The translations under genes were made by a program, and so were the position numbers. Below, in pieces: positions 3,384 to 61,697 of a stretch of DNA of 64,000 nt (positions are counted from its first letter, which is position 1; the number at the start of each line of letters is the position of its first letter). A model generated the notes under the pieces. It searched no databases. It worked only from the letters and a program-made list of their open reading frames with translations, and was not told the origin of the DNA. This DNA comes from Eledone cirrhosa (Eukaryota). The DNA lies in contig OZ024742.1 of the NCBI GenBank assembly GCA_964016885.1, positions 131,812,001-131,876,000 of the forward strand. The letters run 5' to 3'.

Positions 3384-3417
3384 CTTAACGTTTCGGACGC
3401 TAGTCCTTCATCAGAAG
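3384..3417 (-). ncRNA. Minimal type I hammerhead ribozyme (PLE type)
   Basis: Minus strand CTT-CTGATGA-A-GGAC(TAGC)GTCC-GAAACGTT-AAG; palindromic stem III. Confidence 0.7.
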
Positions 3418-29577: not shown

Positions 29578-30321
29578 AAAATACAAATAAAATATAGAGT
29601 TATTAACTCATATTGATACCCTGCAATTAACAGGCTCAAAGTATAAATACTAAGCATAATAATAATAATATATGTAGAAATAAACACAGTAAATTCTGCG
29701 TCTAAAATTACGAGGGTAGATTATACCACAAATGTTTTATATATTTAAACTGAAGCATTCAGTAAGATACAAGATTTCCTATACATACCGTATCAATAAC
29801 GATATCATCTCTTGGGCAGGCTAAAGGTTTAATCTGTTTCGCCCTGAAAATTGTGTTTGTAACAGATAATCTAATGCTCAGTATTTATACGTTGAGCTTG
29901 TTAATTACCGGGTATCAATATGAGTTAATAACTCTATATTTTATTTGTATTTCGGCTCCCTATCTAGGTCAGCTTATAAGATGAGTGTAATCAGGCTATT
30001 ATTTCTAGCATAACCACACACACCACGTATAGGTTTCAACACACGAGGTGCATTATTTACTTCCGTGAGTTCTTGTTAGATGTGTTTTGTTTCATTTAAT
30101 CTAATCTCTCGCTGATGAAATGCATAAAGATTATCTGCTACAAACACAATTTTCAGGGCGAAACAGATTAAACCTTTAGTCTGTCCGAGAGATGAAATCG
30201 TTATTGATACGGTATGTATAGGAAATAGTGTATCTTACTGTATGCTTCAGTTTAAATATATAGAACATTTGTGGTATAATCTACCCTCGTAATTTTAGAC
30301 GCAGAATTTAGTGTGTTTATT

Positions 30322-30325
<4 letters not shown>
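29578..30325. mobile_element. Double fold-back element carrying an HHR-like motif
   Basis: ~29578-29650 is inverted at ~29885-29952; ~29672-29872 is inverted at ~30128-30325. Confidence 0.7.
30105..30192 (+). ncRNA. Hammerhead-like motif (stem II unresolved)
   Basis: TCTCTCG-CTGATGA...GAA-ACAGATTAAA(CC)TTTAGTCTGT-C-CGAGAGA; 7-bp stem I, 10-bp stem III, GUC site. Confidence 0.55.
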
Positions 30326-30365
<40 letters not shown>

Positions 30366-30498: not shown

Positions 30499-30607
<109 letters not shown>

Positions 30608-30630
30608 CATACATATATATATATATATAT

Positions 30631-32925
30631 ATATGTGAATATAGACATAGAATATTCGAAAATATTCTGTATGTTTATAATAAACATTTTGAAGACCTAA
30701 TCGCTATAGAATAGAATACGTCACGTATTACAATTAGATTCTCGATAAAAGCAAGGGAAGTAATCTACGCGTTTCATTCTCGTTAGAAATCATCAGGACT
30801 ACATATCCAGTGCTTTTATCGAGAATGACACAGCTAGAGACTTATAGAATACTTAGCTGTGTACAGGAACTGGTTTGAAAGAGCGGTTGCCGGTCCGGCA
30901 GAAATTAGAAATTGGAATAAATGCTCTGAAATAGCGATATATATGTGAATATAGACATAGAATATTCGAAAATATTCTGTATGTTTATAATAAACATTTT
31001 GAAGACCTAATCGCTATAGAATAGAATACGTCACGTATTACAATTAGATTCTCGATAAAAGCAAGGGAAGTAATCTACGCGTTTCATTCTCGTTAGAAAT
31101 CATCAGGACTACATATCCAGTGCTTTTATCGAGAATGACACAGCTAGAGACTTATAGAATACTTAGCTGTGTACAGGAACTGGTTTGAAAGAGCGGTTGC
31201 CGGTCCGGCAGAAATTAGAAATTGGAATAAATGCTCTGAAATAGCGATATATATGTGAATATAGACATAGAATATTCGAAAATATTCTGTATGTTTATAA
31301 TAAACATTTTGAAGACCTAATCGCTATAGAATAGAATACGTCACGTATTACAATTAGATTCTCGATAAAAGCAAGGGAAGTAATCTACGCGTTTCATTCT
31401 CGTTAGAAATCATCAGGACTACATATCCAGTGCTTTTATCGAGAATGACACAGCTAGAGACTTATAGAATACTTAGCTGTGTACAGGAACTGGTTTGAAA
31501 GAGCGGTTGCCGGTCCGGCAGAAATTAGAAATTGGAATAAATGCTCTGAAATAGCGATATATATGTGAATATAGACATAGAATATTCGAAAATATTCTGT
31601 ATGTTTATAATAAACATTTTGAAGACCTAATCGCTATAGAATAGAATACGTCACGTATTACAATTAGATTCTCGATAAAAGCAAGGGAAGTAATCTACGC
31701 GTTTCATTCTCGTTAGAAATCATCAGGACTACATATCCAGTGCTTTTATCGAGAATGACACAGCTAGAGACTTATAGAATACTTAGCTGTGTACAGGAAC
31801 TGGTTTGAAAGAGCGGTTGCCGGTCCGGCAGAAATTAGAAATTGGAATAAATGCTCTGAAATAGCGATATATATGTGAATATAGACATAGAATATTCGAA
31901 AATATTCTGTATGTTTATAATAAACATTTTGAAGACCTAATCGCTATAGAATAGAATACGTCACGTATTACAATTAGATTCTCGATAAAAGCAAGGGAAG
32001 TAATCTACGCGTTTCATTCTCGTTAGAAATCATCAGGACTACATATCCAGTGCTTTTATCGAGAATGACACAGCTAGAGACTTATAGAATACTTAGCTGT
32101 GTACAGGAACTGGTTTGAAAGAGCGGTTGCCGGTCCGGCAGAAATTAGAAATTGGAATAAATGCTCTGAAATAGCGATATATATGTGAATATAGACATAG
32201 AATATTCGAAAATATTCTGTATGTTTATAATAAACATTTTGAAGACCTAATCGCTATAGAATAGAATACGTCACGTATTACAATTAGATTCTCGATAAAA
32301 GCAAGGGAAGTAATCTACGCGTTTCATTCTCGTTAGAAATCATCAGGACTACATATCCAGTGCTTTTATCGAGAATGACACAGCTAGAGACTTATAGAAT
32401 ACTTAGCTGTGTACAGGAACTGGTTTGAAAGAGCGGTTGCCGGTCCGGCAGAAATTAGAAATTGGAATAAATGCTCTGAAATAGCGATATATATGTGAAT
32501 ATAGACATAGAATATTCGAAAATATTCTGTATGTTTATAATAAACATTTTGAAGACCTAATCGCTATAGAATAGAATACGTCACGTATTACAATTAGATT
32601 CTCGATAAAAGCAAGGGAAGTAATCTACGCGTTTCATTCTCGTTAGAAATCATCAGGACTACATATCCAGTGCTTTTATCGAGAATGACACAGCTAGAGA
32701 CTTATAGAATACTTAGCTGTGTACAGGAACTGGTTTGAAAGAGCGGTTGCCGGTCCGGCAGAAATTAGAAATTGGAATAAATGCTCTGAAATAGCGATAT
32801 ATATGTGAATATAGACATAGAATATTCGAAAATATTCTGTATGTTTATAATAAACATTTTGAAGACCTAATCGCTATAGAATAGAATACGTCACGTATTA
32901 CAATTAGATTCTCGATAAAAGCAAG
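30631..32925 (-). repeat. Retrozyme-like tandem array, left block: 7.4 copies of a 310-bp unit, HHR on the minus strand (7 HHRs)
   Basis: ATATGTGAAT recurs at 30631, 30941, 31251, 31561, 31871, 32181, 32491 and 32801. Confidence 0.92.
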
Positions 32926-35728
32926 AGCATTTATTCCAATTTCTAATTTCTGCCGGACCGGCAACCGCTCTTTCAAACCAGTTCCTGTACACAGCTAAGT
33001 ATTCTATAAGTCTCTAGCTGTGTCATTCTCGATAAAAGCACTGGATATGTAGTCCTGATGATTTCTAACGAGAATGAAACGCGTAGATTACTTCCCTTGC
33101 TTTTATCGAGAATCTAATTGTAATACGTGACGTATTCTATTCTATAGCGATTAGGTCTTCAAAATGTTTATTATAAACATACAGAATATTTTCGAATATT
33201 CTATGTCTATATTCACATATATATCGCTATTTCAGAGCATTTATTCCAATTTCTAATTTCTGCCGGACCGGCAACCGCTCTTTCAAACCAGTTCCTGTAC
33301 ACAGCTAAGTATTCTATAAGTCTCTAGCTGTGTCATTCTCGATAAAAGCACTGGATATGTAGTCCTGATGATTTCTAACGAGAATGAAACGCGTAGATTA
33401 CTTCCCTTGCTTTTATCGAGAATCTAATTGTAATACGTGACGTATTCTATTCTATAGCGATTAGGTCTTCAAAATGTTTATTATAAACATACAGAATATT
33501 TTCGAATATTCTATGTCTATATTCACATATATATCGCTATTTCAGAGCATTTATTCCAATTTCTAATTTCTGCCGGACCGGCAACCGCTCTTTCAAACCA
33601 GTTCCTGTACACAGCTAAGTATTCTATAAGTCTCTAGCTGTGTCATTCTCGATAAAAGCACTGGATATGTAGTCCTGATGATTTCTAACGAGAATGAAAC
33701 GCGTAGATTACTTCCCTTGCTTTTATCGAGAATCTAATTGTAATACGTGACGTATTCTATTCTATAGCGATTAGGTCTTCAAAATGTTTATTATAAACAT
33801 ACAGAATATTTTCGAATATTCTATGTCTATATTCACATATATATCGCTATTTCAGAGCATTTATTCCAATTTCTAATTTCTGCCGGACCGGCAACCGCTC
33901 TTTCAAACCAGTTCCTGTACACAGCTAAGTATTCTATAAGTCTCTAGCTGTGTCATTCTCGATAAAAGCACTGGATATGTAGTCCTGATGATTTCTAACG
34001 AGAATGAAACGCGTAGATTACTTCCCTTGCTTTTATCGAGAATCTAATTGTAATACGTGACGTATTCTATTCTATAGCGATTAGGTCTTCAAAATGTTTA
34101 TTATAAACATACAGAATATTTTCGAATATTCTATGTCTATATTCACATATATATCGCTATTTCAGAGCATTTATTCCAATTTCTAATTTCTGCCGGACCG
34201 GCAACCGCTCTTTCAAACCAGTTCCTGTACACAGCTAAGTATTCTATAAGTCTCTAGCTGTGTCATTCTCGATAAAAGCACTGGATATGTAGTCCTGATG
34301 ATTTCTAACGAGAATGAAACGCGTAGATTACTTCCCTTGCTTTTATCGAGAATCTAATTGTAATACGTGACGTATTCTATTCTATAGCGATTAGGTCTTC
34401 AAAATGTTTATTATAAACATACAGAATATTTTCGAATATTCTATGTCTATATTCACATATATATCGCTATTTCAGAGCATTTATTCCAATTTCTAATTTC
34501 TGCCGGACCGGCAACCGCTCTTTCAAACCAGTTCCTGTACACAGCTAAGTATTCTATAAGTCTCTAGCTGTGTCATTCTCGATAAAAGCACTGGATATGT
34601 AGTCCTGATGATTTCTAACGAGAATGAAACGCGTAGATTACTTCCCTTGCTTTTATCGAGAATCTAATTGTAATACGTGACGTATTCTATTCTATAGCGA
34701 TTAGGTCTTCAAAATGTTTATTATAAACATACAGAATATTTTCGAATATTCTATGTCTATATTCACATATATATCGCTATTTCAGAGCATTTATTCCAAT
34801 TTCTAATTTCTGCCGGACCGGCAACCGCTCTTTCAAACCAGTTCCTGTACACAGCTAAGTATTCTATAAGTCTCTAGCTGTGTCATTCTCGATAAAAGCA
34901 CTGGATATGTAGTCCTGATGATTTCTAACGAGAATGAAACGCGTAGATTACTTCCCTTGCTTTTATCGAGAATCTAATTGTAATACGTGACGTATTCTAT
35001 TCTATAGCGATTAGGTCTTCAAAATGTTTATTATAAACATACAGAATATTTTCGAATATTCTATGTCTATATTCACATATATATCGCTATTTCAGAGCAT
35101 TTATTCCAATTTCTAATTTCTGCCGGACCGGCAACCGCTCTTTCAAACCAGTTCCTGTACACAGCTAAGTATTCTATAAGTCTCTAGCTGTGTCATTCTC
35201 GATAAAAGCACTGGATATGTAGTCCTGATGATTTCTAACGAGAATGAAACGCGTAGATTACTCCCCTTGCTTTTATCGAGAATCTAATTGTAATACGTGA
35301 CGTATTCTATTCTATAGCGATTAGGTCTTCAAAATGTTTATTATAAACATACAGAATATTTTCGAATATTCTATGTCTATATTCACATATATATCGCTAT
35401 TTCAGAGCATTTATTCCAATTTCTAATTTCTGCCGGACCGGCAACCGCTCTTTCAAACCAGTTCCTGTACACAGCTAAGTATTCTATAAGTCTCTAGCTG
35501 TGTCATTCTCGATAAAAGCACTGGATATGTAGTCCTGATGATTTCTAACGAGAATGAAACGCGTAGATTACTTCCCTTGCTTTTATCGAGAATCTAATTG
35601 TAATACGTGACGTATTCTATTCTATAGCGATTAGGTCTTCAAAATGTTTATTATAAACATACAGAATATTTTCGAATATTCTATGTCTATATTCACATAT
35701 ATATCGCTATTTCAGAGCATTTATTCCA

Positions 35729-35735
<7 letters not shown>
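32924..35735 (+). repeat. Retrozyme-like tandem array, right block: ~9.1 copies of the same unit inverted, HHR on the plus strand (9 HHRs)
   Basis: TTCAGAGCAT recurs every 310 bp from 33231 to 35711; reverse complement of the left block. Confidence 0.92.
33025..33113 (+). ncRNA. Type I hammerhead ribozyme of the 310-nt unit (representative copy)
   Basis: GTAGTC-CTGATGA(33055-33061)-T-TTCT(AACG)AGAA-T-GAA-ACGCGT-A^GATTAC. Stem I is extended by the perfect 16-bp ATTCTCGATAAAAGCA/TGCTTTTATCGAGAAT. Predicted cleavage after 33085. Confidence 0.85.
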
Positions 35736-35783
<48 letters not shown>

Positions 35784-35854
35784 CAAATATATATACATAT
35801 ATATGTAGATATATATATGTATATATATGTATATATATATATATACACACACAG

Positions 35855-35891
<37 letters not shown>

Positions 35892-35893
<2 letters not shown>

Positions 35894-36797
35894 CGATATT
35901 AAACAAATGGAAACTACATTTATAAAACCATATTTATTTCATTATATATATTTCAGGGATATCATATTAATAATATGCTATGCCTTCCTCAGACAAAATA
36001 CAATATAAACAGTTTTATTGATAAATATATTTGACATACCGTACAACATCGACTTGTATTTGAAAAGTTGAATTGGCAGTGAAAAAATTGTACACAGAGA
36101 GAAAGAAAGAGAGAAAAAAAAGAGAGAAAAAAGAAAAGAAAGACAGAAAACGAAGAAAAAGAAGAAAAAGAAGAAATGCATGGAACAAAATAGAGAGATG
36201 GAAAGATAGATAAAGAGAAGAACTTCATGTAAAGAAACAGAGATATATATATATATAGAGAGAGAGAGGAAGATATATATATAGAAAACTATGTAGTGGG
36301 ATATCCGTTGAGTAAACGTATCAATGATACATTTATCTATTTATTTATTTATTTAGCTCTAGTATTAATGTAAGGGAGATATATGTGGTTAGGAGAGAAA
36401 CCAGCTGTTATATAGAGAGAAAAATTAAAAATAACCAGACATAGGCGAGGCATAAAAACCCTATGTTTTAATGTAGAGGTATTAGTATGTATAAAAAAAC
36501 CAGCCACTATATTGTAAATATCAGTATTCCTGAATGAGACATGTATCCATAATGTGTGAAAAGTAATGATCTTATGTTTAGTTTTTTAGAAAAATTCATA
36601 TGTTTATGTGATAACTACAAACATCTATGTGAATTCACATGATCAACTCTGCAAACCCTAAGTTCACGGAAAACATTCTCATTGTGCTATAAAAATTTAA
36701 GTATACATATATGTGTATATATATACACACATATATATATTACTACTATTCTTGTCTTTACTCTACAAGATTATCTATCAAGCAGAAATAGAGAGCA
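35892..36797 (-). repeat. Inverted pseudo-LTR segment (HHR at ~35935-36000, minus strand)
   Basis: Reverse complement of 39836-40741 with few differences. Confidence 0.9.
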
Positions 36798-37020
36798 TAT
36801 CTATAAAACTGTTTATATTGTATTTTGTCTGAGGAAGGCATAGCATATTATTAATATGATATCCCTGAAATATATATAATGAAATAAATATGGTTTTATA
36901 AATGTAGTTTCCATTTGTTTAATATCGTAAATATACTCCAAATACTTGTCGAGTGCTTTTATATCAGTTATAAATATTTACTCGTTGTAGCCCAACAATT
37001 TAAATATAACTTTCCATGTA
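36798..37020 (+). repeat. Partial 5' pseudo-LTR (direct repeat)
   Basis: Matches 40610-40832. Confidence 0.9.
36821..36886 (+). ncRNA. pLTR hammerhead ribozyme
   Basis: TATTTTGT-CTGAGGA-AGG...CCT-GAA-ATATATAT-A-ATGAAATA; 8-bp stem I, palindromic stem III. Confidence 0.75.
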
Positions 37021-37064
37021 TCTTGCTCCAATACTGTTGAGCGCTTTATATTATAACTGGAAAA

Positions 37065-38399
37065 ATGGAATTCTTTAAGATTACTTCCTCTTTAAAAGAC
37101 ATACCTCTACCTAGAAACAAAGACTTTATAAAACAATTAATAGATAAATCTGACTCTTTTATAAGGAGAATCAGGTGGCGAGCATTCCACTTTGATAAAT
37201 CTAATATAAATGAAAATGTCTCGGACTTAAACAAAGTTTTCAAATCTAAAAGAAATCCACCCCCTAACAAACTTTTATCTGACTATGAAAACGATATAAT
37301 TTCTATCATACAAGGGGTCAAATTCAAGAGAAACTTCAAAGGCCAGGAATATCTAAAAGGCATTAAGGATAATATTGAGAGCTTAGAGAAAACTGAGAAG
37401 ATCTTGGTGAACTCTGACAAGACCAACAACCTCTATGGAGTGCAGAAACACATGTATAATGGCCTCATACTGAAGGAACTGAGGAAAAAGTACAAGGTAG
37501 CAGATAAGGCCGAGCTTGAGAAAATGAATGTCGAAGCATCTTGTATAATGCATGAGTTGGAAATTGAGAACAGAACACAACCTTTCGTGCCCAGGAAACC
37601 GAAGATCAATATGAAAGATCACAAGAGGAATTTTGAAAATGACTTGCCAGTTAGATTGATCGCACCATCAAAATCGGACCTGGGCAAATTAAGCAAAAAC
37701 ATTCTTGACAGGGTGATACAGCAAATTAAGAACTTGGATTGTTTATCTAACCTGAGCTTGTGGAAGGGAACTGGAGAGGTTGTTGAGTGGTTTAAGCAAA
37801 TTAAATATAACAATAATAATAAGTTTATTCAACTTGATATTGCTAACTATTATTCTTCTATTACCCCTAATCTACTAAATAAGGCTCTAAATTACGCATT
37901 CAAACATACTGACCTAACTAGCAATGAAATGCATATTATATTATCGGCTAGGAAAACATTGATAGAATTTAATGACCAACTATGGACCAGAGCAGATAGA
38001 GATAGCAACTTTGACATTACTATGGGATCATCCGACTCAGCTCAGGTAACTGACCTTGTGGGCTTATTTTTAATCAATTCGCTACATAGGAAAATACCTG
38101 GTACTACCGGAGGTTTATATAGAGATGACATGTTTTTACTTATTGATAATAATAACTCTGAACTAAATAGAAAATGTAAACAAATTACACAATTTTTTAA
38201 TTACTTTAATCTTAAAATAGAAATTGAGAACAACCATAGAATAGTCAATTTCCTAGATATAACATTAAATCTCAACACATGTCTTCACTATCCTTTTCAC
38301 AAGTTGAATGAAAACTTAAACTATGTCAACTTTAACTCTAACCACCCCAGATCTGTCAAAAAACACTATAGTAAACTCTGTTCAAAAACGTATCTCTAG
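37065..38399 (+). CDS. PLE reverse transcriptase (N-terminal part of the frameshifted polyprotein)
   Basis: SDKT, KDHK..PVRLI, FIQLDIANYYSSI, ITMGSSDSAQVTDLVG, LYRDD, NFLDITL, YVNFNSNHP motifs. Confidence 0.9.
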   Translation: MEFFKITSSLKDIPLPRNKDFIKQLIDKSDSFIRRIRWRAFHFDKSNINENVSDLNKVFKSKRNPPPNKLLSDYENDIISIIQGVKFKRNFKGQEYLKGIKDNIESLEKTEKILVNSDKTNNLYGVQKHMYNGLILKELRKKYKVADKAELEKMNVEASCIMHELEIENRTQPFVPRKPKINMKDHKRNFENDLPVRLIAPSKSDLGKLSKNILDRVIQQIKNLDCLSNLSLWKGTGEVVEWFKQIKYNNNNKFIQLDIANYYSSITPNLLNKALNYAFKHTDLTSNEMHIILSARKTLIEFNDQLWTRADRDSNFDITMGSSDSAQVTDLVGLFLINSLHRKIPGTTGGLYRDDMFLLIDNNNSELNRKCKQITQFFNYFNLKIEIENNHRIVNFLDITLNLNTCLHYPFHKLNENLNYVNFNSNHPRSVKKHYSKLCSKTYL

Positions 38400-39279
38400 G
38401 ATCTCGTCGAATAGAAAGATTTTCGACGAAAAAGCCCAATACTACAATGAAGCGTTAGCTAGAGCAGGATATACTGATAAGATTATGTACATAGATAATG
38501 ATAGACAAACTAAACAAAATAACAACTATTTTAATTACGGCAACAACCTTAACAACTATAATAGAAAGCATTACAATAATTCCAAAGGCCAAAAAAGAAA
38601 TAGAACTAGGAACATAATTTGGTTTGCCCCCCCTTTCTCACTAAACATTAAAACCCACATCGCTAAACTATTTTTTAAAGCTCTTGATAATCGCTTCCCT
38701 AGAACACATAGGTATCACTCAATTTTCAATAGACATACTATAAAATTAACCTACTCATCCACCAAAAATTTAGCACAAAATATTAATAGTATAAATAATA
38801 GGAACTTAAAACCTAGTGATAATAGCATAAATAATATACAAGTTAACAAATGTAACTGTAGAGATAAATCTAAATGTCCATTAAATAACAACTGCTTAGT
38901 TAAAAATATAGTATACAATTGTAATGTTAAAACTGACTCTAATTCTTTTAACTACGTCGGTTCCACATCGACGGAATTTAAACTTCGCTATAATAACCAC
39001 AAGAATTCTTTCACAGATCCAAGCAAAAAATCTTCAATGGCACTATCAGGCGTACTCTGGCAACTTAAGCTAGATAACGTTAGATATTCGACGGCTTGGA
39101 ATATAGTCTCAAGAGGGATTCCTTTTAATTCATCCTCTGAGACATGTGACCTCTGCGCAGAGGAGATATTCTTTATACTAAAATCTAAAAATTCCCTTAA
39201 TCTACGGACAAATTTATTCAGTTGCTGCAAACATAGATTAAACTCAACTTTTAAATATAAATTTAAATTTAAAATGTAG
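38323..39279 (+). CDS. PLE thumb/linker and GIY-YIG endonuclease (C-terminal part of the polyprotein)
   Basis: IIWFAPPFS, CNC-x5-CPL, IVY...YVGST...FKLRYNNH, CDLCAEE, CCKH. Joins the upstream ORF if one A is removed from the A6 run at 38358-38363. Confidence 0.88.
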   Translation: MSTLTLTTPDLSKNTIVNSVQKRISRISSNRKIFDEKAQYYNEALARAGYTDKIMYIDNDRQTKQNNNYFNYGNNLNNYNRKHYNNSKGQKRNRTRNIIWFAPPFSLNIKTHIAKLFFKALDNRFPRTHRYHSIFNRHTIKLTYSSTKNLAQNINSINNRNLKPSDNSINNIQVNKCNCRDKSKCPLNNNCLVKNIVYNCNVKTDSNSFNYVGSTSTEFKLRYNNHKNSFTDPSKKSSMALSGVLWQLKLDNVRYSTAWNIVSRGIPFNSSSETCDLCAEEIFFILKSKNSLNLRTNLFSCCKHRLNSTFKYKFKFKM

Positions 39280-39835
39280 TATATTTAGTTTGATTTATAA
39301 TTATATGGGAAACTAGCCGATAAATCTTTCGATTTCTTCTTTTTATTCTTTTTATTTTTATTTTTATTTTTATTTAAACATTCTTCATGAAAAATTAAGC
39401 TACCCTAAAAGTTGATGCTCCAAATATTTCGAATAAACGTTACACTAGATAAACTTCTATATTAAATATAAGAACACATGTAGACCAAATGGGAATCCTA
39501 AACTTTTTGAAATGATTTTTGCTAGATGCGATTTGATAAATAATTTTTAGCTTTATCTGTTTTTCGACTCTGATGCTTATAATGAACTTGGCAATATATT
39601 GTCAATTAATTTTGAAGGGTTGATCTTTGTGGTTTACTTTTATTGTAGTATTTTCTAATATTTTTATTTTTAATATGTAATATTTTTAATATGTAATATT
39701 CTTTCGTAATATTTTTTAGTTTTCTATTTTATTATTATTTATTATTATATTTATTATATTTATTATTATTATTATTATTGTTATATTTTTGATTTTTGTT
39801 TCTGATATATATTTTTTTATTAATATATTGAAATC

Positions 39836-40832
39836 TGCTCTCTATTTCTGCTTGATAGATAATCTTGTAGAGTAAAGACAAGAATAGTAGTAATATATAT
39901 ATGTGTGTATATATATACACATATATGTATACTTAAATTTTTATAGCACAATGAGAATGTTTTCCGTGAACTTAGGGTTTGCAGAGTTGATCATGTGAAT
40001 TCACATAGATGTTTGTAGTTATCACATAAACATATGAATTTTTTTTAAAAAACTAAACATAAGATCATTACTTTTCACACATTATGGATACATGTCTCAT
40101 CAGGAATACTGATATTTACAATATAGTGGCTGGTTTTTTTATACATACTAATACCTCTACATTAAAATATAGGGTTTTTATGCCTCGCCTATTTCTGGTT
40201 ATTTTTAATTTTTCTCTCTATATAACAACTGGTTTCTCTCCTAACCACATATATCTCCCTTACATTAATACTAGAGCTAAATAAATAAATAAATAGATAA
40301 ATGTATCATTGATACGTTTACTCAACGGATATCCCACTACATAGTTTTCTATATATATATCTTCCTCTCTCTCTATATATATATATCTCTCTCTGTTTCT
40401 TTACATGAAGTTCTTCTCTTTATCTATCTTTCCATCTCTCTATTTTGTTCCATGCATTTCTTCTTTTTCTTCTTTTTCTTCGTTTTCTGTCTTTCTTTTC
40501 TTTTTTCTCTCTTTTTTTTCTCTCTTTCTTTCTCTCTGTGTACAATTTTTTCACTGCCAATTCAACTTTTCAAATACAAGTCGATGTTGTACGGTATGTC
40601 AAATATATTTATCTATAAAACTGTTTATATTGTATTTTGTCTGAGGAAGGCATAGCATATTATTAATATGATATCCCTGAAATATATATAATGAAATAAA
40701 TATGGTTTTATAAATGTAGTTTCCATTTGTTTAATATCGTAAATATACTCCAAATACTTGTCGAGTGCTTTTATATCAGTTATAAATATTTACTCGTTGT
40801 AGCCCAACAATTTAAATATAACTTTCCATGTA
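39836..40832 (+). repeat. 3' pseudo-LTR with HHR at 40633-40698
   Basis: Matches both upstream copies; CTGAGGA at 40641, GAAA at 40679. Confidence 0.88.
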
Positions 40833-41169
40833 TATATATATATATATGAGTGTGTGTGTGTGTTTCTTTTTAATGGCTAATAATTCCTTACCGATGCCAC
40901 CCGAGTAAGGTAATTATCTAACGCATAAAGAAGGCCGCAACATATAATTCTGCTTCAGGCCAGAACAGAACTGGGAGTGATAACAATTAAGGGGCAACTC
41001 CACATTCCCCACAGCTTCTGAATTCCCAAACTGGAGCCTTGCCACTGGAGGCATTTTAAAGTCATACCCAGGAAATATATAAATATATTGTTGCCTGAAT
41101 GTGCGGTTGTAATCACTAAAGAAAAGCCCTCAGTATGTACTCATAGAGGTAAATACGCTATATTGTATG

Positions 41170-57543: not shown

Positions 57544-57954
57544 TCAATCTGTCCACTATTAAAATGACAACGCTTCACTCCATCAACACCTTTACAACTA
57601 GATGTACACGACCACGATTCATTCATTTTCTCAATTCCTTTCTTCAGTCGACATCTACCCTTGTTTTCTCCCAACTCTCCACATATATTTTCTTCCCTAA
57701 ATAACCAATCAAAACAAAGAAAGACTGACGACCCGAAATGAATGAGAACAGATATATTTTTTTAACGCTGCATGCGAAACATTCCGTCAATAAGCAAACA
57801 TAATATTACATTTGTTTAGTACAACCCGAAAGTACATACTGCAAACTACGCATAGAGTGCTCACTTCGATGAACCAACATACATATATATATATATAATG
57901 GTTGCATTCTCTAAGGGTATGTCAATATTTATTTATAAAACTGCTCTATATTAT

Positions 57955-58057
57955 AATTTTTCTGATGAAAGCACACCATAATTTAACTTGGTGTCCTTGA
58001 AATATGTATAATGAAATAGATATGGTTTTATAAATATACTTTCCATATGTTAATATC

Positions 58058-58060
<3 letters not shown>
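57955..58060 (+). ncRNA. HHR within a solo pLTR fragment related to the 35892-40832 element
   Basis: CTGATGA-AAG.ACACCA...TGGTGT.CTT-GAAATATGTATAATGAAATA, then ATATGGTTTTATAAAT...TAATATCGTA as in the pLTR. Confidence 0.7.
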
Positions 58061-58152
<92 letters not shown>

Positions 58153-59933: not shown

Positions 59934-60420
59934 AAATATTAATAAGAAAACACCCAGAGAATATCAAAATTGCTCCCGTAGAGTCAAAAGTGAATGCCCA
60001 TTACAAGGTAAATGCAACACCAAAGCCAATGTATATGAGGCCAAAGTGACAACCTACAGCAACAACCTACCAACCACCAGCGAACGATATGTGGGTATGA
60101 TACAAGACAAATTCAAAACGCGTTATTACTCACATGTCGCATCTTTCCGACATCATGAAAAAAGATTTACAACAGCTCTGGCTAGCAAAATTTGGGATTT
60201 GAAGGACCAAGGTATCCAATATATATAAGATTGGTCAATTTCGAACCAATCTAAAGAATGCGCAGGAAGAACAGGAATATGCGCACTCTGCATAAGCGAA
60301 AAATATTGGATTTTACAGCACCTTAAATCTCCCAAAACCTGCCTAAATGAAAAAAACAGAAATGTTCACCAGTTGCCAACACATGAAATCACACTTGCTT
60401 TCCAGCTCATATAAACTTAA
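59930..60420 (+). pseudogene. PLE GIY-YIG endonuclease fragment
   Basis: CPLQGKC..VYEAKV..YVGM..FKTRYYSH..SF..TALASKIW.LK; CALCISEK. Confidence 0.8.
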
Positions 60421-60879
60421 CTAACTTTCAGACACTTATCCTCCATAAACTCTTGTTCTTCACTTTCCTTAACTTACCATTTTTATAGACTTCTCATTCA
60501 GTTTTACTTATCTTTTATTTTTACTTTACATCCACTAATGAACCCCCCCCCCCTGCTATTTGATTAATTAATTTTATATCTTAATTATACGTTATGTACA
60601 TTTATTTTACTTCCCACTTTTCTTTCACTACCAGATATCCCTGTCACTTGTGTTTTGAAATACAGATATTTTCCGTTGTCCCTTAGCCGCTTTTATGTAT
60701 GTATACTTGCGTATATTTTGTAAACATCTATTCATACGGTTGTTTCTTTAGATATGTATGTATGCGTATGTGTGCATGTGCGTTTACGTATGTGTTTTCA
60801 CATGCATATATATATATATACTTATATATAAACATTGGATTGAACCATAAGTAGTTTGTATTTCTGCATCTTAGTTCAA

Positions 60880-61697
60880 TCCAATGGTTCAATCCAATGG
60901 TTCAATCCAATGTTTAACTCCCCTATAAAAACTAAGCTACCTTACACTTTCTTCAAATTAGTTGACAAAGATTTCCCTAAAATTCATAAATATGATAAAA
61001 TCTTTAATATAAAAATTATCAAACTATCATACTCCACTTCCAACAACATAGAATCGTACATACATAAAATTAACTATAAGAGAATTTATAATACAAGTGG
61101 CCCGCAAATAAGTACCATAACACCTAATACAAAACATAAGCATATAACATCATCACAACCAAAAACACGTCAGATCACATCACCACGATACATTAACAAA
61201 CCCAATTCTTAGCCTATACGTAGCAACCTACAAAACCATGTAGGAGAACCAGCGCATAGAAAAGCATGTAAATGTAACTGCCATCTTCCTGACAAATGTC
61301 CTTTACAAAACAGATGCCTAGAGACAAATATAGAATACCTATGTACTATAAATTCAGGTAGTTAGCATGGCATTACATTGGTTCCACAGCTGGGGAGTTT
61401 AAGAAAAGTTGGTACGTACATAGACACTCTATGACAAACAGGAATCTCTCTAAGACAACGACTCTCGCCAATAAAATCTGGCAACTTAAAGGTGCAAACA
61501 TGGAATATAAAATCAGCTGGACAAAGCTATCAAAAGCAAAGGCCTTTCAAATTGGTATGTCCCACTGTGGTCTCTGTAATATGGAACTTCTCCGAATTTT
61601 AAATTACAACAAATTTCTTCTTAACAGTAAAATTAATAAAACCAGTTTTTGTCGACATAAATCGGCAACTAAATTTGAGAACTTTAGACCAGCTTAA
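60880..61697 (+). pseudogene. PLE thumb-linker-GIY-YIG fragment
   Basis: WFNPMF..FFKLVDKDFPK..KIFN..KLSYS; CNC..CPL; YIGST; TTLANKIWQLK; CGLCNME; FCRHK. Confidence 0.82.

Follow-up and report, generated by a model that had tools for sequence, protein, structure and literature searches.

A two-armed hammerhead repeat array in Eledone cirrhosa bears the footprint of Penelope-type insertion

Introduction

What places a tandem array of ribozyme repeats into a microsatellite, and does the array gain its many units at insertion or later? This question is raised by a 64,000-nucleotide (nt) stretch of Eledone cirrhosa DNA (GenBank assembly GCA_964016885.1, contig OZ024742.1, forward strand positions 131,812,001 to 131,876,000; hereafter the window), in which an inverted array of a 310-nt hammerhead repeat lies beside a Penelope-like element (PLE). 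A reading of the window from its letters alone (the sequence-only reading) had proposed that the array was inserted by PLE reverse transcriptase (RT) and GIY-YIG endonuclease, possibly of the neighbouring family, and that the two form an autonomous element and its parasite side by side.

Repeats of this kind, the metazoan retrozymes without long terminal repeats (non-LTR retrozymes), are described by Cervera and de la Pena (2020, PMC7229834) and by Li, Clavereau and Pollet (2026, 10.64898/2026.07.22.740005), and passages of these papers already propose PLEs as their mobilisers, with RT acting on a primed circle. The case for the mobiliser of animal retrozymes, and for the origin of their arrays at insertion or afterwards, has so far rested on co-occurrence and phylogeny. 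Here we describe a young family of ~1,900 near-identical loci that carries the full PLE footprint and whose two arms most likely derive from one template.

Results

Architecture of the array

The array and its flanks comprise the following features, with unit positions numbered from the predicted hammerhead cut.

30502..30626, no strand: (TA)n target, left flank of the array
30627..32925, minus: left arm, 2299 nt, 7.42 units, 0 mismatches to the unit, from unit position 11 at the junction to 139 at the short 3′ end
32924..32925: inversion junction, 2-nt microhomology AG common to both arms
32924..35735, plus: right arm, 2812 nt, 9.07 units, 1 mismatch (at 35263), from unit position 149 at the junction to 170 at the long 3′ end
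33040..33105, plus: first of nine plus-strand type I hammerhead motifs, predicted cut 33085/33086
35705..35735, plus: retrozyme tail (unit 140-170), found at just one of the two outer ends
35736..35885: TA/CA microsatellite between array and PLE, 150 nt

The hammerhead-sense strands of both arms start at the junction and run outward to end in (TA)n, with their outer ends offset by the fixed tail (unit 139 versus 170). The sequence-only reading had placed the inversion at 32924-32925 with an AG overlap, which is exact to the base, and the arm coordinates confirm the outward course that it gave to the two strands. The window array is a single recent insertion of a non-coding hammerhead repeat, and no open reading frame (ORF) of 100 or more amino acids (aa) lies inside it. 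Judged by sequence, it is a non-LTR retrozyme: the tandem unit of 310 nt and 34.5% GC fits the low-GC, 170-400 bp description of these elements and contains a type I hammerhead core with predicted activity. There are 7 cores on the minus and 9 on the plus strand, and core and stems I-II are present in 16/16. The motif at 33040..33105 has all 11 core nucleotides, with stems I and II of 6 and 4 bp; its short stem III is palindromic, which suggests a dimeric ribozyme. The unit is more stably folded than its shuffled versions (z −3.9), as a self-paired RNA would be. A scan of 28-44 kb against Rfam returned nothing beyond microsatellite-driven miRNA matches.

Ends, pairing and targets across the genome

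We counted loci with sequence patterns, including ones that match only the arm ends. The exact 35-nt hammerhead pattern has 4085 matches genome-wide, the first 100 of which form 10 loci (9/10 minus-then-plus), and the arm-end patterns give 1790 short-end and 1697 long-end matches. On contig C1 (1-156.7 Mb), 100 short and 91 long ends resolve into 80 divergent pairs within 16 kb and 31 unpaired ends; 6/100 long-end rows with internal indels and 3 outside the shared range were left out. Every one of the 80 pairs combines a short with a long end (46 short-long, 34 long-short, 0 like-like).

Sixty paired places and 20 unpaired ends were then fetched on C1. Six of the unpaired ends had a second arm that the pattern had missed and 14 did not, one of these being interrupted by an N gap. 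On an unbiased count ~80% of loci have two arms, as do 76 of 91 stretches in the sample enriched for pairs. True single arms, L033 included (unpaired set L136-L155), show the short end 12 times and the long end twice, a bias that may mean earlier or more reliable use of the short start site.

Ends were called for 73 of the 76 pairs, the script failing on 3. They peak at unit positions 130 (39/73) and 165 (44/73), and the offset between short and long end is 26-45 nt in 71/73 pairs, with a mode of 35 nt. A rule-based call finds a TA flank at 138/146 ends; the remaining eight are the two ends of site L085, two short TA runs, one gap and three ends miscalled at a variant. L085, the sole non-TA site, has a target duplication of ~11-15 bp. 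The 5′ joints show no departure from uniformity over the unit (Kolmogorov-Smirnov p = 0.11), and only 2/152 lie within 5 nt of the ribozyme cut. The inner junctions are scattered and differ at each locus, with overlaps of mostly 0-5 nt.

PLE hallmarks include an inverted truncated 5′ copy and a 30-40 bp tail, often at one end only, and Hydra PLEs target (TA)n (Craig 2021, PMC8557442, in the passages used). Passages of Frangieh (2024, PMC11167929) show that both strands are cut and extended by a PLE protein and that the RT has two internal start sites, the sequence between which makes up the tail. PLE mobilisation of the retrozyme is strongly supported, because the two arms, the fixed short and long ends with their tail and the TA target match this footprint. 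The two-armed loci, the tail and the TA flanks thus uphold insertion by PLE RT/GIY-YIG machinery, and the inversions and TA targets anticipated for other loci were found there.

We consider it likely that a Penelope-type RT/GIY-YIG enzyme produced the array by cutting both strands of the (TA)n microsatellite and copying one RNA, probably a 310-nt circle, from two start sites. Each DNA end would prime several rounds of copying on the same RNA, two start sites ~35 nt apart would give the short and the long end, and the two cDNAs would be joined by microhomology.

Twin priming by a long interspersed nuclear element (LINE) also yields an inverted 5′ piece, and raw sequencing run X23 has 0 reads on the unit and so none across the junction. 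We nevertheless regard twin priming or a fold-back or assembly artefact as extremely improbable: both outer ends are fixed, 35 nt apart and without poly(A), the junctions are asymmetric, and the end rule recurs in an ORF-bearing PLE family (see below). Fold-back is excluded as the source of the inversion because the inner junctions are scattered and locus-specific.

The retrozyme tail at 35705..35735 contains a 13-nt block that is kept in related retrozyme families. Such older families, with units of 313-324 nt, are seen at L041:2002-3213, L033:4854-5209 and L119:4018-4518; they have the same inverted layout and the conserved tail block, and end in the same region. Conservation of the block and of the end region in these families suggests that the tail is a candidate protein-binding site.

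Both arms carry one haplotype

To compare the arms, variants in their last 14 nt were left out, as were those in the first 30 nt in the substitution analysis. The same unit haplotype occurs in both arms at 48 of the 49 loci with at least two units per arm (40/41 without the eight loci picked by exact motif), against a shuffled expectation with a mean of 9.1 and a maximum of 19 in 20000. Thirteen of the 18 haplotypes occur once, and are present in every unit of both arms. Singletons number 156 in 220,264 nt (0.07%) and are almost never common to two arms. The 11 core nucleotides are hit by 0 whole-locus variants and 3/83 singletons, both small numbers. Since the arms carry one haplotype, one template most likely fed both; the shared, filled haplotypes and the rarity of singletons favour a monomer circle, probably copied round from both ends, and disfavour later growth.

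Several observations weigh against this scheme. At the level of the template, L107 and L120 each show a variant of a single unit that recurs in register in the other arm, and L097 is a mosaic; these three loci fit a multimeric template better. The repeated variants of L088, L089 and L117 are consistent with later duplication. About one locus in five is single-armed, and the in-depth sampling is limited to contig C1. The hammerhead model HH9 aligns full-length to the unit at 15.8 bits (E 0.11), far under the Rfam gathering score of 52 bits, and the constrained monomer fold is unstable (+0.9 kcal/mol); a 2026 preprint (10.64898/2026.07.22.740005) gives, in the part used here, 8/9 predicted elements without cleavage. 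Searches with the conserved tail block gave 21 and 7596 matches genome-wide, and 0 of the 41 tail-motif loci that were read has an in-line ORF, a set covering a small part of the PLEs of the genome. The enzyme is therefore deduced from its footprint, as no autonomous element with the retrozyme tail was found.

The in-register variants of L107 and L120 and the mosaic at L097 would be explained if the template of PLE-type insertion were mostly a source array transcribed into long linear multimers, and so would a variant present in 7/8 units at L101; uncut RNA was moreover the main in vitro substrate in the passages of PMC11167929. Such a template is nonetheless distinctly unlikely. Two in-register singletons stand against the 13 once-seen haplotypes that fill both arms, and A20G and A276G, each found on five backgrounds, nearly always fill all units, so that a one-unit bottleneck is needed at some step.

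Growth after insertion, in which small PLE-type insertions are enlarged by unequal crossover and their arms homogenised by conversion (the satellite model, 10.64898/2026.07.22.740005), would account for variants repeated 1, 5 or 7 units apart in L086, L088, L089 and L117, and for L077 and L127, which are below one unit per arm. We hold it to be very improbable, as the singleton rate leaves little time for it and multimeric arms of unlike length (e.g. 1.2 and 27.3 units) have private haplotypes, and almost never singletons, in common. Copying of a monomer circle at insertion is our preferred account of the arms.

Three of these loci have further peculiarities. At L097:1276-5294 the variant at 276 runs throughout the short-end arm and, in the long-end arm, is confined to the innermost two units, a pattern that may record synthesis order or a template switch. 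Two variants at L088:1907-7787 recur exactly seven units apart, as after a 7-unit duplication or on a multimeric circle. A 272-nt GC-rich foreign piece at the inversion junction of L089 (2299-2570), without a match in the fetched loci, was perhaps captured by template switching.

Excess of A>G substitutions

On the RNA strand, A>G accounts for 10/27 whole-locus substitutions and for 6/83 singletons (Fisher p = 0.0005), position 295 being polarised by majority in this count. Eight of the 9 A>G sites other than 295 fall in A-U pairs of the circular fold. ADARs are active in cephalopods and prefer UAG. The excess possibly reflects RNA editing (A-to-I) of the template written into DNA, and is equally explicable by selection for G-U wobble in stems.

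A tentative picture, which we think may well not hold, has one PLE dimer per insertion working on one circular ribozyme RNA. Its two active sites would start at different fixed points and roll round the circle from opposite ends of the staggered cut; A-to-I edits on the circle would enter every unit, and host editing would drive the evolution of a viroid-like parasite.

The neighbouring PLE and the enzyme donor

The PLE next to the array has the following parts.

35886..36797, minus: inverted arm duplicating 39836-40747, with a hammerhead-like core at 35992 and its short 3′ end at 35886
36798..37021, plus: partial upstream pseudo-LTR, copy of 40610-40833 (100%); hammerhead-like core at 36829
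37065..39279, plus: Hydra-type PLE RT and GIY-YIG ORF, 1-nt frameshift near 38350
39280..40833, plus: 3′ region with pseudo-LTR, tail (40748-40833) and a hammerhead-like core at 40641

The inverted arm aligns with the reverse complement of 39836-40747 over 913 columns with 9 mismatches and 2 gap openings. The inversion junction at 36797/36798 is blunt and both 3′ ends continue into (TA)n, the long one at 40833 having its short-end counterpart at 40747. This arm alignment agrees with the topology first described for the element, and the 150-nt spacer is close to the ~160 bp then estimated. The stems of the core motif at 40641 look plausible by eye, and the motif has no Rfam hammerhead match.

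The window PLE was inserted independently into the microsatellite of the array, and the copy is older and frameshifted. Its greater age follows from the far greater divergence of its arms, with 12 differences over two 916-nt arms compared with 1 in 5111 nt of array (Fisher p = 1e-6). It has no significant match to the unit and a tail of ~86 rather than ~35 nt, and a pairing of the two neighbours as autonomous element and parasite is not supported. Their side-by-side position is a coincidence of target, as both target (TA)n. The suggestion that the PLE family may be the mobiliser survives through its intact copies, which keep it a candidate donor, and is unsupported for the window copy, whose frameshift prevents it from making the full protein.

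Intact family copies encode 736-740 aa (18/20 fetched long-ORF copies). One of them, P0001 (737 aa), has a C-terminal GIY-YIG, RWR for RWK, DKT, a CxCX5C linker and no CCHH, as well as CxxC and CxH around E and N. These motifs place the neighbour in the Hydra clade, and our first guess, Neptune, was discarded on them. The protein has no family match in Pfam or the PDB; 125 relatives were found at 30-42%, the best named ones from Argonauta hians (38-41%). The family obeys the short/long end rule at 14/14 loci with both ends visible (20 fetched), and also in 5/5; its own ends lie at 40747 and 40825-40833, giving a tail of 80-86 nt. It has at least 2347 long ends into TA, and 150/150 RT matches among the matches listed are at 96-100%, which refutes the rarity that an exact search with the window PLE hammerhead (8 matches) had implied. 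The median nearest-neighbour distance of the RT is 0.3-0.4%, and most zero distances reflect repeated fetching of the same locus or a single tandem cluster on contig C6. In that cluster (26.53-26.80 Mb, L055-L059), five copies with identical RT DNA lie inside 270 kb, probably as a segmental repeat.

Could intact copies of this family elsewhere be the actual enzyme donor in trans, with the adjacency still due to chance? The family is large and fairly young, with mostly full-length copies among those fetched, its target and end rule are like those of the retrozyme, and decay is further advanced in a second Hydra-like family (78-97%; most copies checked not intact). An array lies ~380 nt away at L167, one of the 20 PLE family loci fetched, and an 87% relative adjoins the array at L106. 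We still find this donor unlikely. The 310-nt unit has no significant match to the family (best E 0.24), the tails differ in length, and the RT distance exceeds the 0.07% of singletons in the arrays. On C1 the 310-nt repeat is no closer to the family than expected by chance, with 0, 1, 2 and 6 of 69 family insertions lying within 5, 10, 20 and 50 kb of a retrozyme short end (expected 0.5, 0.9 (0.87), 1.7 and 4.0). The 90 other array stretches contain no family copy at ≥95%, RT or endonuclease pieces of other PLE families occur in 8 of them, and the genome has about 30,000 RT candidates.

The 3′ regions of seven neighbouring PLE fragments show no retrozyme-like tail, and the single-arm loci include no chimeric retrozyme-PLE junction. 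The PLE long end resembles related retrozyme ends over 17 nt, which we attributed to chance on a rough estimate.

Relation to known elements

The array shares with metazoan non-LTR retrozymes, as given in the passages of the papers named above, the low-GC tandem units of 170-400 bp, one type I hammerhead in each, the lack of an ORF and the co-occurrence with PLEs. Inverted two-armed loci, fixed 3′ ends, a tail and microsatellite targets are found here and are not reported in the passages of PMC7229834 and 10.64898/2026.07.22.740005 that we compared; 'inverted', 'inversion' and 'microsatellite' occur 0 times in the PMC7229834 main text. The available passages of 10.64898/2026.07.22.740005 argue from distribution and pseudo-LTR phylogeny and favour later local amplification, whereas we find no parent pseudo-LTR. 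A literature search with subscription papers outside its reach returned no report of inverted, tailed retrozyme insertions or of arm-haplotype sharing in the texts covered.

With PLE insertions, as those passages portray them, the array has in common the inverted 5′-truncated copy, the tail at one end, an AT-rich target and internal starts away from the ribozyme cut; it differs in that the footprint lies on a non-coding parasite and the arms reach many template lengths. Each start site is used exactly once per insertion here, while the in vitro start site in PMC11167929, in the passages used, shows no strand difference. Non-autonomous Chlamys elements such as MRC1 (Craig 2021, same passages) are likewise non-coding, head-to-tail and PLE-mobilised. 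The neighbour resembles the Hydra clade in that account in its GIY-YIG position, RT and linker motifs and (TA)n target. It departs from the account in that its monomer, at 3.8 kb, exceeds the general size of less than 3 kb and its tail, at ~86 nt, the 30-40 nt given for PLEs.

The element is thus of a known kind and its mobiliser was already proposed; what is new is the footprint evidence and a testable model of two-ended rolling-circle copying. The footprint supports PLE mobilisation directly and favours the view that arrays are born at insertion, through rolling-circle reverse transcription. For the PLE mechanism, which is poorly understood, it sets the constraint of one start site per DNA end, and it makes the 310-nt unit a minimal substrate with predicted start sites.

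Further observations in the window and in sequencing runs

A third divergent two-armed element, with inverted arms of 79 and 200 nt (94-95%), adjoins the array at 29579-30327 between microsatellites, and pieces of it are found again in L194. Further hammerhead-like cores at 3414(−), 6264(−), 8595, 11947, 29421, 56762 and 57962 are probably pseudo-LTR remnants of other PLE families. The stretch 57916-58066 is an 83% relative of the neighbour PLE pseudo-LTR, and decayed PLE endonuclease fragments lie at 59971-61679 (28-35% to P0001).

Self-closing contigs of 340 nt occur in sequencing runs X2 and X3, contigs in which circle and tandem are indistinguishable. The unit is present at low depth in X2, where the PLE is absent, and in X3, together with 5 PLE pieces; X5 contains both unit and PLE. 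Unit words are present at 65-100% in runs X1-X20, under 18 organism labels, with no RNA run among those listed; the low unit depth in X2/X3 and its absence from raw run X23 suggest trace DNA and not interspecies spread.

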